Origin: Chthonomonadales bacterium
GTDB taxonomy: Bacteria > Armatimonadota > Chthonomonadetes > Chthonomonadales > Chthonomonadaceae
Assembly (NCBI GenBank): GCA_038217285.1
Contig: JBBQPO010000024.1
Coordinates: 1 to 33,753, forward strand
DNA length: 33,753 nucleotides
Direction of reading: 5' to 3'
This document shows positions 129 through 6,469 of this stretch, piece by piece. A program made the translations under genes and the position numbers. Each line of letters begins with the position of its first letter. Position 1 is the first letter of the stretch. The notes beneath the pieces are model-generated. The model had not been told where the DNA came from. It was given only the letters and a program-made list of their open reading frames with translations, and ran no database searches.

Positions 129-971
129 TTATTGGTGATCAATGTAAGCAAGTAACGTTGAGATACCATGGCTATGGGCGATATACACTTCATCTGGTAA
201 GGGATTACCATTGAGATAAAGAAATCTTAAGTGAGTTAGCTGTCCCAATTCGCGCGGTAACGTGATCAATTGATTGTCAGCTATCTCTAAGATCTCTAGT
301 TGGGTGAGATGACCAATCTCCGGTGGAAGTATGGCAAAGTAGTTACGATTAAGAAGGAGCGCGTTCAGTTGAGTCAGGTTGGCAATTTCAGCAGGGAGAA
401 AGGTCAGTTCATTGTCCGCGACCGAAAGTGTGACCAAATTGGTGAGGTAGCCGATTGCTGATGGCAATGCTGGTATATGATTGCTGGCAACTTCTAGCAA
501 CCTCAATTGAACCAACGCAAAAATCTGTGCAGGTAAAGAAGAGAGCGCATTTTTGCTAAGAATTAGCTCCGTTAACTGGGCAAGTTGGCCAATTTCAGCA
601 GGCAGAGATCCAAGTTGATTTCCGAACAGGGAGAGTTGCGCCAAATTTACGAGGCCACCGATTTCCACTGGCAAACATGTTAAAACATTATTTGCGACAG
701 AGAGATCTTTGAGGTTTGTAAGTCGACCGATCTCTGCAGGTAGTGACGTGAGGCTATTATTATTGACAGATAGGACTGCTAAATTGCTAAGTTGTCCGAT
801 TTCGGGTGGAAGGGATGTTAGTTCGTTGCGTTCTAAGTTGAGTAATCGTAGATTAGTGAGTTGACCTATCTCAGCAGGCAATGTCGTCAGTTTATGATCG
901 CTGAGGTCAAGGATCATCTCCTGTGTGTGACCAGCATCAGCAATAATTTCGAGGAGTTCTTGTTGATTCAT
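129..971 (-). CDS. Leucine-rich repeat protein (10 x 23-aa LRRs plus cap), stand-alone; candidate immunity/partner of the upstream RHS protein
   Basis: Repeats of type LxLxxNxLxxLPAEIGQLTNL with a strict 23-aa period; ends in NPLP...GISTLLAYI; visibly lower GC than core genes. Confidence 0.93.
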   Translation of the reverse strand: MNQQELLEIIADAGHTQEMILDLSDHKLTTLPAEIGQLTNLRLLNLERNELTSLPPEIGQLSNLAVLSVNNNSLTSLPAEIGRLTNLKDLSVANNVLTCLPVEIGGLVNLAQLSLFGNQLGSLPAEIGQLAQLTELILSKNALSSLPAQIFALVQLRLLEVASNHIPALPSAIGYLTNLVTLSVADNELTFLPAEIANLTQLNALLLNRNYFAILPPEIGHLTQLEILEIADNQLITLPRELGQLTHLRFLYLNGNPLPDEVYIAHSHGISTLLAYIDHQ

Positions 972-1003
972 TTGATCGGCTCCGGAATTAGGATTAACAG
1001 TGG

Positions 1004-4100: not shown

Positions 4101-6469
4101 GCATCGAAGACTGTGCTGGAAACCCGGTTCAGCGGATCGACCATCGAGATAGCCCGAGTGGCAACATCGTAATTGGTCGTACCGCGATTGTTGAGCGCAT
4201 CGACCCAGGCAACGGTGCGATTGGCCGCATCGAAAACGGTGGTAGATAGCCGGTTGAGTGCATCCTGACTGCTTATCGCCCGCCCTGCCGCGTCGAAGTT
4301 AGTCGTGCTGCGGAAACCAAGCATGTCTACCGAGGCAATCGCTCGGCTCGCCGGGTCAAACACCGTCGTGTTGGTTCGGCCCAACGGATCAACGCTGGCA
4401 ATTGGTCGGCCCATAGGATCGAAGTTCGTGCTGTAGCGCGAACCAAACGCGTCTACGCTGGCAATCCGCTGTCCCACAAGGTCGAAAACAGTCGTGCTGA
4501 AGAAGCCAAGCGCGTTCTGGAGGGCAATCGGTCGGCTCAGACTGTCGAAGATCGTTGTCGAAATGTTGCCAAGCGCATCGACGCTGGCAATCGGACGGTC
4601 TGCCAGGTCGAAAACAGTCGTGCTGAAGTTGCCAAGGGGGTCTACGCTGGCAAGCGGCCTGCTCGCCACATCGAAAACGGTCGTCGTCGTATTGCCCAGA
4701 GGATCGACGCTCGCCACCATTCGGCCTGCGCTATCGAAAACGGCAGTGCTCCGATTGCCCAACGCGTCAATGCCTGCGATGACTCGACCCAGACCATCAA
4801 AAACCGTGGTGCTCACATTACCCAGCGCGTCCACCATTTTGACCGGCTTGTCGAAGACGTTGAAACTCCAACTCGTCCGAGAACCCAGCGGACTAATCGC
4901 CACCACCCGATTGCCCACCGAATCGTAGCCCACTGTGGAAACGTTTCCCAGCGGATCTTGCGAGGTGAGCGGCCGGTTCTGGTTGTCGAAGGTCGTGCTC
5001 CAGGTCGCTCCCAACGGATTGGTCTGCGCAATCACATTGCCCGCCAGGTCGAAAACGCGCGTCGAAATATTGCCAAGAGCGTCTTGCTGAGTTATCGGAT
5101 TGCCGAAACCGTCGTAGCCCACCGTGCTCAGGAAACCCAGCGGGTTTTGCATCGAAACGACCTGGCCTCGGGCATTGAAAGTGCTGGAGGTGATAAAGCC
5201 AAGCTGGTTCACCTGAGCCTGCAATCTTCGCTTGGCTCCCGTCGTGTCGAAACTGCTGCCCGCGTAACCCCAGATGTTGGTCACAATCGCCCCGTCCGGA
5301 GTCTGTACGCTCGTCAGGTTGTTGAAGGCGTCATACGAGAAGGTCGTCTGCTGACCTAACGGACTGATCCGACCCCTCACATTCCCGCTCCCGTCGTAGA
5401 GGGTCGTCCACACCGCTCCGCTCGGCGTCTGACGGCTCGTCTCCTGATTGTTGGCGTTCCTCGTGAAGGTCACCAGCGCGCCCTGCGCGTTCTGCATACC
5501 CGACAGCGAGAAGTTCGCTCCAGTCGTCTGCGTGGTGAGGTTGCCGAGCACATCCACCGTCAGCATCACCCCCGGCTGGTAGAGATAGGTCGTCACCCCC
5601 ACGCCGGCCACCGCCCGCGTCACCACCCGCTTCTGACGATCATAGCTGTAAGAAGTGCCGAACCCGTTCGGATCGACGATACCCGACAGCAGCCAGCCGC
5701 TCGACACCCCGAACGAGAGCGTCGAGAGCGTGAACGTCGCGTACTGGTAGCCCGTCTGACAGCCGGTGGGACCGGTCACCGTGGTCAGCAGGTTCAGGGG
5801 TGAGGCAGTGGAGGTATCGTACTGAAAAGTCGTGCGCCGCCCGGCCCAGTCCTGAATACCCTGCAACAGCCCGCCCGCATAGCTGAAGGAGACGAAGCGA
5901 CCGACCGCGTCCTGGATGGTCTGGAGCAGCCCGCTCGCATACGCGAAAGTCTGGGTGTTGCCGACGGCGTCCTGGGCGTAGGTGAGGCTGGTGATCTGAC
6001 CGGTGGTGTTGAGCGGATAGGCGGTGACGATGCCGTCGGGGGTGGTCTCTTTCCAGAGGCTGTTGGCCACATCCTTGGTGAGGCGGTTGAGGAGGCCGAG
6101 GGTCTGAGCGATGAAGGTGCCGGAGCCGTTGTCCTGGAAGCTGACGATTGCGCCGTTGCCTCGGGTGAGGGTGACGAGGGCGGGACTTCCGGACGCCTGG
6201 GCGGTGAGGTTGGGGCTGGCGGTGCGGGAGTATCCGAAGGGTCCGTTGACGAGGCTGGTGGCGTTGTAGTAATAGGCAATGTCGAGGTCCATGCCGACGG
6301 AGGGGAGATGGATCTCGGGATCGACCTGGAGGTTGCCGGACGCTTGGGGATCGGGACGGTAGGCTTCGCAGCGGTGGCAGGCAGTCGCCTTGGCCGCGCC
6401 GCTCTCATCGAGAGGTAGCACCAGGGTGGGGATGTTCGCCAACTCCTCCGCACTCAACAACTCCAGCAT
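1103..6469 (-). CDS. RHS/YD-repeat protein with inserted malectin-like domain, RHS-associated core and Cys-rich C-terminal tip (putative polymorphic toxin)
   Basis: Dozens of 21-aa xFDxxGRxxxxxDxLG repeats; core motifs RAR..[35 protein letters not shown] (DPxG-x-DPxGL autoproteolysis signature); purine-rich SD-like sequence upstream of the ATG. Confidence 0.95.
   Translation of the reverse strand: [1788 protein letters not shown]
3084..5182 (-). repeat. Tandem 63-bp (21-aa) YD/FD repeat array inside the RHS gene, ~34 consecutive units
   Basis: Units such as [21 protein letters not shown] and [21 protein letters not shown], read directly from the translation. Confidence 0.9.

Follow-up and report, generated by a model that had tools for sequence, protein, structure and literature searches.

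The model Rhs/YD systems with orphan tip-immunity cassettes are the Rhs proteins of E. coli and Dickeya and WapA of B. subtilis. In the Tc toxin TcB-TcC, an RHS cocoon with an extra domain inserted in its shell encloses an autoproteolytically cleaved C-terminal cargo and releases it without a type VI secretion system (T6SS). Two classes of immunity proteins, Imm-LRR, with leucine-rich repeats (LRR), and Imm-HEAT, with HEAT repeats, have been published for polymorphic toxin systems (Zhang et al. 2012, PMC3482391). In that survey, the toxin partners of Imm-HEAT are Ntox34 and Tox-REase-7, the LRR cases adjoin toxins of the type V secretion system, and LRR immunity genes occur mainly in heterogeneous polyimmunity loci. 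Here, we describe an RHS locus in contig JBBQPO010000024.1 of a Chthonomonadales bacterium (phylum Armatimonadota; assembly GCA_038217285.1, 6.21 Mb in 459 contigs, 95.27% complete). The whole contig (C24, 33,753 nucleotides) was analysed and is referred to below as the window. With moderate confidence, we read the locus as encoding a polymorphic RHS toxin of Armatimonadota whose shell bears malectin and whose tip belongs to a new family, the tip and a following LRR gene forming a foreign block. All coordinates given in a preliminary description of the window were correct and every element listed there was present; the main elements are as follows.

1103..6469, minus strand: gene of P0001 (1788 amino acids), a probable RHS/YD-repeat polymorphic toxin, with RHS_repeat and YD_repeat_2x matches
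2294..2809, minus strand: malectin-fold insert, residues ~1221-1392 of P0001, from Pfam, the flanks in relatives, AlphaFold2 (AF2) and Foldseek
1646..1900, minus strand: Rhs-associated core TIGR03696, with DPSGL at 1646-1660
1106..1645, minus strand: tip (P0003), 180 amino acids with 15 Cys, the segment after DPSGL
1442..1600, minus strand: N-module of the tip, tip residues ~16-68 with 6 Cys, from the A2 alignment and AF2 helices
1118..1354, minus strand: C-module of the tip, tip residues ~98-176, with eight near-invariant Cys on three helices
972..1102, minus strand: spacer of 131 nucleotides between the RHS and LRR genes, with a long hairpin at ~1004-1064
129..971, minus strand: stand-alone LRR protein P0002, 280 amino acids, a candidate immunity or partner protein, with LRR_8 and LRR_14 matches
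129..1837, minus strand: block of low GC content at third codon positions (GC3), apparently foreign, comprising the last ~60 amino acids of the core, the tip, the spacer and the LRR gene, from the GC3 profile

Judged by its domains, P0001 is very probably an RHS polymorphic toxin. RHS_repeat (PF05593) matched with an E-value of 5.6e-89 in Pfam and YD_repeat_2x (TIGR01643) with 2e-59, while a model of the RHS element core protein, NF041261, scored 182.8 bits against a cut-off of 2000. The Rhs-associated core TIGR03696 is complete (residues 1524-1608, model positions 1-76 of 76, 44.2 bits against a cut-off of 32.5) and ends in the motifs DPIGF...DPSGL, with DPSGL at residues 1604-1608, as had been recognised when an intact DPxG..DPSGL signature was first proposed. 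These are aspartyl self-cleavage motifs, and cleavage at the C-terminal core would release the tip. The reading frame of 1788 codons is intact and has a plausible ribosome-binding site, and the acidic N-terminus is kept from residue 1 in relatives. RHS matches are frequent in relatives (39 of 41 genomes, the host genome counted), where many orphan modules consisting of the core end and a tip match residues 1393-1609. The database protein P0038 is 80% identical to P0001 over residues 1-1610 and unrelated beyond DPSGL. Such similarity of the shells, combined with wholly different tips, demonstrates replacement of the tip at the canonical junction.

The presence of a malectin-like domain within the shell, suggested earlier, was borne out by both sequence and predicted fold. 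The Pfam family Malectin (PF11721) matched residues 1231-1356 with an E-value of 1.1e-7 and 32.4 bits, above the cut-off of 23. In several shells of relatives, only 15-30 nucleotides separate the segment matching residues 1-1220 from that matching 1393-1609 (G030:C60, G011:C133, G025:C41 and G011:C86). Residues ~1221-1392 are, therefore, an insert relative to those shells, located ~215 residues (~1393-1608) ahead of the core end. An AF2 model of residues 1180-1420 (pLDDT 83.9, pTM 0.76) showed a malectin-like beta-sandwich. In Foldseek searches, the modelled insert matched plant ANX/FER malectin-like ectodomains (best match ANX2, 5.3e-10), human malectin (9ikp, 7.9e-7, TM 0.63 on target) and Xenopus malectin (4.1e-4); a search of the PDB by sequence with the malectin segment had given 0 matches, and it was the fold search that succeeded. 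The insert thus has the fold of a carbohydrate-binding-type module and may bind glycan. The label “glycan-targeted”, applied to the RHS protein in the preliminary description, is an interpretation of that fold.

The combination of RHS repeats with malectin is not new; it is numerous in databases, though unstudied. At least 19 proteins among the 120 matches listed carry both PF05593 and PF11721 (P0031-P0042, P0048, P0065, P0076, P0079, P0083, P0103 and P0107), and two matches bear the NCBI name “malectin domain-containing carbohydrate-binding protein”. P0036-P0041 are 69-80% identical to the window protein across the malectin insert, at full coverage. Given these proteins, and given that Imm-LRR and Imm-HEAT are already described in PMC3482391, the earlier designation of the locus as a new system was too strong. 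The malectin-RHS relatives that we fetched were taken from P0032-P0041. In all nine in which a tip could be delimited, the tip is Cys-rich, with 9-17 Cys (5.8-11.7%, against 0.2-0.4% in the shells), and these tips belong to different families. P0032, which has no junction motif, contains 21 Cys in its last 287 amino acids. The C-module of the window tip was found in none of the nine fetched relatives, each of which has a different tip. On reading the sequences, we also noticed a second malectin copy in P0032-P0035 and HExxH-like motifs in two tips of the malectin-RHS relatives.

The segment that follows DPSGL in P0001 is exactly 180 amino acids long and contains 15 Cys, as initially described; the 1608 amino acids of the shell contain only 6. 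The tip family is rare. A profile of three tips produced 24 matches at E≤1e-3 among 1,835,955,588 representatives, the closest relatives being P0011, P0010 and P0014, and a 22-member profile matched in 16 of the 401 genomes of the phylum, the host genome counted. Two of the copies are pseudogenised (G330 and G382). A profile scan of metagenomes with tip alignment A3 returned nothing, and one with P0009 a single contig of 1758 nucleotides, cut inside the gene; in scans of genome contigs, alignment A1 recovered only the two G011 loci and alignment A3 none.

In our searches, the tip could not be assigned to any known family. No Pfam family recurs among 22 tips; the window tip has no match, and six weak matches each concern a single member. 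A sequence-profile search of the PDB gave 0 matches at E≤1, Foldseek gave nothing at E≤1e-3 against PDB and BFVD, and the ESM Atlas contained no usable match. The best VIA-align hit (Z 6.0) was to generic helical bundles, which is within the noise stated for helical models. The tip is a member of a rare, previously undescribed family. Among the papers listed by literature searches, none was relevant to Cys-rich Rhs tips and none joined armatimonads with Rhs, or Rhs with malectin in bacteria, each of which is weak evidence of absence from print.

The AF2 model of the tip is all-helical, and a linker at tip residues 78-99 is disordered. Helices were predicted at tip residues 16-20, 23-35 and 50-61 of the N-module and at 106-121, 128-155 and 160-172 of the C-module, the latter with pLDDT 85-95. 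The N-module also precedes unrelated C-terminal parts in P0013, P0023, P0036 and an orphan in G025:C41: P0013 and P0023 match only positions 1-89 and 1-113 of the tip profile, and the P0036 tip opens with the N-module motif. The C-module is the constant part of the family. Its Cys residues C110, C114, C134, C138, C146, C153, C166 and C175 are invariant or nearly so, follow a Gly/Pro-rich FPxG stretch, and are spaced as twin CX3C ... CX3C, then CX6C ... CX8C on facing helices. This spacing would fit disulfide or metal staples between antiparallel helices; the term “disulfide-rich”, used for the tip earlier, expresses one of these two interpretations. The tip alignment contains no conserved residue of catalytic type: besides Cys, only hydrophobic residues, Gly, Pro and one basic position are conserved. 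The cargo is, therefore, taken to be a non-enzymatic toxin, for instance a binder or a membrane-active protein.

Two kinds of proteins carry this tip. The first are RHS proteins (G342, G135, G094 and G277) or core-end orphans of ~300 amino acids. The second are non-RHS proteins of 660-960 amino acids that have an HExxH motif, belong to no Pfam family, and end in an RHS-like junction, ...PYGYAxNNPxxxxDPSGL. They are encoded at 7736-10606 (minus strand) and 16502-19384 (minus strand) of L022 (G011:C91) and include P0007, P0012, P0027, P0029 and P0030. By their sequences, the HExxH proteins may constitute an undescribed family of polymorphic-toxin carriers. The occurrence of the same tip on RHS shells and on non-RHS HExxH carriers marks it as a true polymorphic-toxin cassette.

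The nucleotide composition of the locus changes within the RHS gene. GC3 is 0.736 in the shell, 0.409 in the tip and 0.406 in the LRR gene, in line with the lower GC content of the last two reported before. The drop, from ~0.7 to ~0.45, occurs at residue ~1545, ~60 amino acids before DPSGL, and values stay at 0.33-0.50 to the end of the LRR gene. The genome median is 0.68, and only 2.9% of its 6678 long open frames are at or below 0.45. Because low GC3 extends in one block from the core end through the tip and spacer to the LRR gene, we read these parts as one orphan-type cassette recombined into a resident shell; joint acquisition of the tip and the LRR gene is probable. Contigs from three of four sequencing runs bridge the LRR gene, the spacer and the end of the tip (X1 149-1232, X2 865-1144 and X3 931-1470); one of the bridging runs may be the source sample. 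Near-identical copies of the locus, with a few substitutions, occur in contigs of other runs. In run X2, pieces of the cassette differ from the window by 1-3 letters per 150-325 nucleotides (about 1%), while pieces over 1660-2296 differ at 21 of 458 and 17 of 186 letters (4.6-9%). As the X2 pieces are unlinked, they do no more than hint at the same cassette on a diverged shell, and at a cassette that is younger than shells or moves between them.

The spacer is single-copy in the genome. Its hairpin at ~1004-1064, with about 21 base pairs, has a minimum free energy of -49.8 kcal/mol (z -4.62), and 0 of 200 shuffled sequences fold as well. An Rfam search of window positions 1-1300 gave nothing above threshold and only sub-threshold miRNA-like matches on the hairpin. 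The hairpin might serve as a terminator lacking a T-run or as a site of RNA processing, or be the scar of a recombination event. On the other side of the LRR gene, the contig ends after 128 nucleotides, inside a repeat:

1..56, no strand assigned: repeat of 56 nucleotides at the contig end, with copies in C15 and C183

An identical copy is located at C15:155-210 and one of 87.5% identity at C183:7883-7938; the sequences ahead of these copies are similar as well, and the repeat has no tRNA and no Rfam match. Read depth of run X1 is high over positions 1-80, and the X2 and X4 contigs diverge at 56/57. The repeat probably explains why the assembly stops shortly after the LRR gene.

The LRR gene is a co-oriented, stand-alone gene, as first noted. 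It encodes 280 amino acids, starts 131 nucleotides after the RHS stop codon, and has GGAG 8 nucleotides ahead of its ATG. P0002 consists of LRR throughout (LRR_8 1.6e-30 and LRR_14 6.2e-37 in Pfam), and its closest relatives, at 40-53% identity, are from Cyanobacteria, Chloroflexota and other phyla. Like members of Imm-LRR, it is a small protein with an LRR fold beside a toxin tip.

Genes behind the tip could be read at ten loci besides the window. At five of them (G011:C91 copy a, G011:C33, G054:C50, G118:C57 and G094:C33), the next gene encodes a HEAT-repeat protein of 161-237 amino acids and begins ~3-41 nucleotides after the tip gene. The five proteins form one family (31-48% pairwise identity), and their joint profile matches only these five among all tip loci and the window. 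Two of the five loci, G118 and G094, match in the C-module alone, so it is this module that HEAT accompanies. The association of HEAT with the tip family is thus observed, and the HEAT proteins may confer immunity. Behind the remaining tips are a pentapeptide-repeat protein (G277) and family-less open reading frames (ORFs; G342, G135 and G011:C91 copy b), and at G054:C289 no ORF of at least 40 amino acids behind the tip matched the HEAT profile.

Several other HEAT candidates were discarded. The 226-amino-acid ORF behind the G135 tip and the 155-amino-acid ORF behind the G342 tip were compared with HEAT by hhalign, with a probability below 1%. ORF L022:14758-15333 starts with a Cys motif like that of the neighbouring Fer4_16 gene and, on reading, is probably a QueG-type tail. 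The 15 HEAT matches in the host genome are generic, the best (1.2e-11) lying beside a ROK-type regulator with no toxin nearby. Other repeat scaffolds are found behind RHS tips of the phylum: orphan modules are followed by a PD40 propeller in G025 and by ankyrin repeats in contig C58 of the host genome. The latter locus, a second RHS locus of this genome (G000:C58:19000-24643, L154), consists of a truncated RHS gene, an ORF of 247 amino acids and an orphan core-and-tip module of 333 amino acids, and its ankyrin-repeat protein has 166 amino acids (Ank_2, 1.1e-18). A further stretch, at G000:C236:199-279 (plus strand), encodes 27 residues with 89% identity to RHS residues 77-103, contains an in-frame TGA, and represents either a very short relic or a match by chance.

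According to the explanation that we favour, the YD-repeat cocoon serves as the shell, and the inserted malectin-fold module would bind glycan. The C-terminal Rhs core would cleave itself at the aspartyl motifs, ending with DPSGL, and the cargo behind it is the 180-amino-acid, two-module, all-helical, Cys-rich protein, whose C-module is predicted to be a three-helix unit held by the eight conserved Cys and whose action would be non-enzymatic, e.g., that of a binder or a membrane-active protein. An orphan-type cassette (the last ~60 amino acids of the core, the tip, the spacer and the LRR gene) would have entered the resident shell by recombination inside the conserved end of the core. The LRR protein, standing where HEAT proteins stand elsewhere, would be the candidate immunity or partner protein. 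That it is the cognate immunity protein is plausible, with chances close to even, and it is the best local candidate for such a role. The preliminary interpretation stands with respect to the RHS toxin, the malectin insert, the family-less Cys-rich tip and the foreign tip-LRR block, but not with respect to co-variation of the LRR gene with the tip.

The strongest competing explanation is that the LRR gene merely travels with the foreign block, or belongs to a mixed immunity islet, and is not cognate to the tip; the HEAT-type gene would then have been lost or lie beyond the contig, or none would be needed because the cargo is harmless to its producer. We consider this possible, though not probable. 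Several of our observations weigh in its favour or against the reading that we favour. LRR follows the tip at 0 of the 10 other tip loci, in contrast to the single HEAT family at five, and the nearest full-length relative of the tip (G011:C91, 41-42% identity) has a HEAT protein 25 nucleotides downstream. Conversely, no RHS shell, core or tip was found within 3 kb at 78 loci of the closest LRR relatives. In relatives, LRR genes and this tip thus occur independently of each other, in both directions, which is one of the observations named in the preliminary description as counting against it, and the association with a toxin family across genomes that characterises Imm-LRR is not seen for P0002. 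LRR matches at E≤1e-20 occur in only 5 of the 68 genomes of the order, the host genome counted, and none of the five holds the tip family. LRR paralogues in the host genome are unlinked to toxins; their neighbours, on reading, are an SDR-like gene and a transporter-like gene. The 131-nucleotide spacing with a strong hairpin contrasts with the tight spacing of the HEAT genes, and the contig breaks at a repeat soon after the LRR gene, beyond which an immunity gene of HEAT or another type may lie. The concentration of published LRR immunity genes in polyimmunity loci, as described in the survey cited above, points in the same direction. By eye, the LRR and HEAT proteins have no signal peptides, a poor fit with a disulfide-bonded toxin acting outside the cytoplasm. 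Finally, the grounds for a putative toxin role of the tip are wholly architectural.

A passenger LRR gene is, however, at odds with other observations. The LRR gene and the tip share an extreme GC3 within a block that is continuous from residue ~1545, and in position, strand and size the LRR gene is like an immunity gene. The window gave no match to the HEAT family, and only generic HEAT proteins turned up in the genome; half of the other tip loci likewise have no HEAT gene. According to its abstract, a 2026 JBC paper (PMC13392607) describes disparate immunity proteins for one nuclease toxin, so replacement of HEAT by LRR would have a precedent. A prediction of the complex of the tip with the LRR protein, made without controls, returned no answer (score 0.00) and is evidence for neither side.

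It is also conceivable, but unlikely, that the tip is not a toxin but an extracellular structural, adhesive or metal-binding module, and that the repeat proteins downstream are helpers or unrelated. This would accord with the lack of a conserved catalytic-type residue in the tip alignment and of a match to known toxin families or folds in our searches. The tips of the nine malectin-RHS relatives are Cys-rich regardless of family, which suggests that they have an environment in common, not an activity. On the other hand, the tip directly follows DPSGL, the release site of RHS shells, is found on a second, unrelated carrier with the same junction, and is swapped like toxin cassettes. The one small HEAT family that tightly follows it in different families of the phylum reproduces the architecture of a toxin-immunity cassette.

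Pfam and TIGRFAM-type scans revealed no PAAR or VgrG domain in P0001. Searches for PAAR (PF05488) and TssC (PF05943) gave no match in this genome, which is 95.27% complete, and were positive in control genomes. Of the earlier statement that a signal peptide, PAAR and VgrG are all missing, the part concerning PAAR and VgrG is therefore confirmed by domain search, and the part concerning the signal peptide reflects inspection of the acidic N-terminus by eye. Judging from the genome, T6SS is not the export route. One tip carrier, G135, has a lipoprotein-like signal at its start, by eye. Genes upstream of the RHS gene are not conserved in relatives, and NifU is found there in G006. The upstream context in the window is the following:

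6795..9185, no strand assigned: low-GC ORF and insertion sequence (IS) transposase upstream of the RHS gene, with DDE_Tnp_1 and weak TPR matches

The transposase occupies 7701-9185 (plus strand; DDE_Tnp_1, E 4.8e-12). Between it and the RHS start, ORF P0006 (6795-7352, minus strand, 185 amino acids) has a GC3 of 0.419 and weak TPR-like matches, and is a second foreign patch beside the shell of native GC. One could also regard the locus as a remnant, decaying or silent, in which an RHS gene with no export signal is caught between IS and repeat and no longer functions. This would suit the transposase and low-GC ORF upstream and the failure to find a signal peptide, PAAR or TssC, but is very improbable given the intact 1788-codon frame with its plausible ribosome-binding site, the N-terminus that relatives keep from residue 1, and the near-identical copies in other runs.

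The remaining genes of the window are housekeeping genes, coding for an FtsW-transpeptidase fusion, PfkB, homoserine dehydrogenase, a WecG glycosyltransferase and an S9 peptidase. The fusion (10497-13919, minus strand, 1140 amino acids) combines a helix-hairpin-helix segment, an FtsW/RodA domain and a penicillin-binding transpeptidase. At 29515-30497 (minus strand), an ORF with a SocA/Panacea antitoxin domain (192 amino acids) is immediately followed by a family-less ORF of 134 amino acids; the two may be a toxin-antitoxin pair.

Whatever the role of the LRR gene, an undescribed and very rare tip family, helical, putatively Cys-stapled and with no catalytic signature, is added to the polymorphic-toxin repertoire, and its make-up could point to non-enzymatic killing. 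The family is placed in a little-studied phylum and is common to RHS shells and an uncharacterised HExxH carrier. With HEAT at five of ten loci and LRR here, one can ask directly whether a single toxin can be countered by immunity proteins built on unrelated repeat scaffolds. The malectin insert and the uniformly Cys-rich cargoes of the malectin-bearing RHS clade may help to explain how RHS toxins are directed to their targets and work in the absence of T6SS. These findings leave the established principles of RHS systems as they are. A broader idea, which we put forward as doubtful, is that the malectin-RHS clade would be a T6SS-independent, glycan-addressed device for extracellular delivery of Cys-stapled cargoes, with the C-module of the tip neutralised by interchangeable, independently recruited scaffolds (HEAT for most lineages, LRR in the window and perhaps pentapeptide repeats in others). 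If this were true, the tip family would be a new class of non-enzymatic RHS cargo, and the loci would illustrate how, in nature, different scaffolds can come to block one toxin.

Compared with known systems, the locus resembles the Rhs/YD polymorphic toxins of PMC3482391: it has a YD shell, an Rhs core ending in DPxGL, a tip exchanged at the junction, and a small same-strand gene behind the tip, and relatives have orphan modules of core end and tip. It differs in that P0001 has no PAAR, VgrG or LXG domain and, by eye, no signal peptide, in a genome with no PAAR or TssC match, and in that it has the malectin insert and a tip of no described family. With Imm-LRR and Imm-HEAT, the locus shares a small, presumably cytoplasmic repeat-scaffold protein encoded directly after the toxin tip (HEAT at five of ten loci, LRR here), but the published toxin partners are unlike the window tip, and the window LRR protein does not co-vary with the tip. 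The likeness of P0001 to TcB-TcC is an analogy only, a TcA-like partner and a TcB-type propeller not having been looked for. The insert resembles malectin and malectin-like domains (PF11721, PF12819; 9ikp, ANX/FER) by its Pfam score above cut-off and by the Foldseek match of its model, but is located inside an RHS cocoon and not in a receptor kinase, a lectin of the endoplasmic reticulum or a glycosidase. The RHS+malectin proteins of the databases have the same architecture, P0038 with a shell of 80% identity, but each of these proteins bears a different tip.

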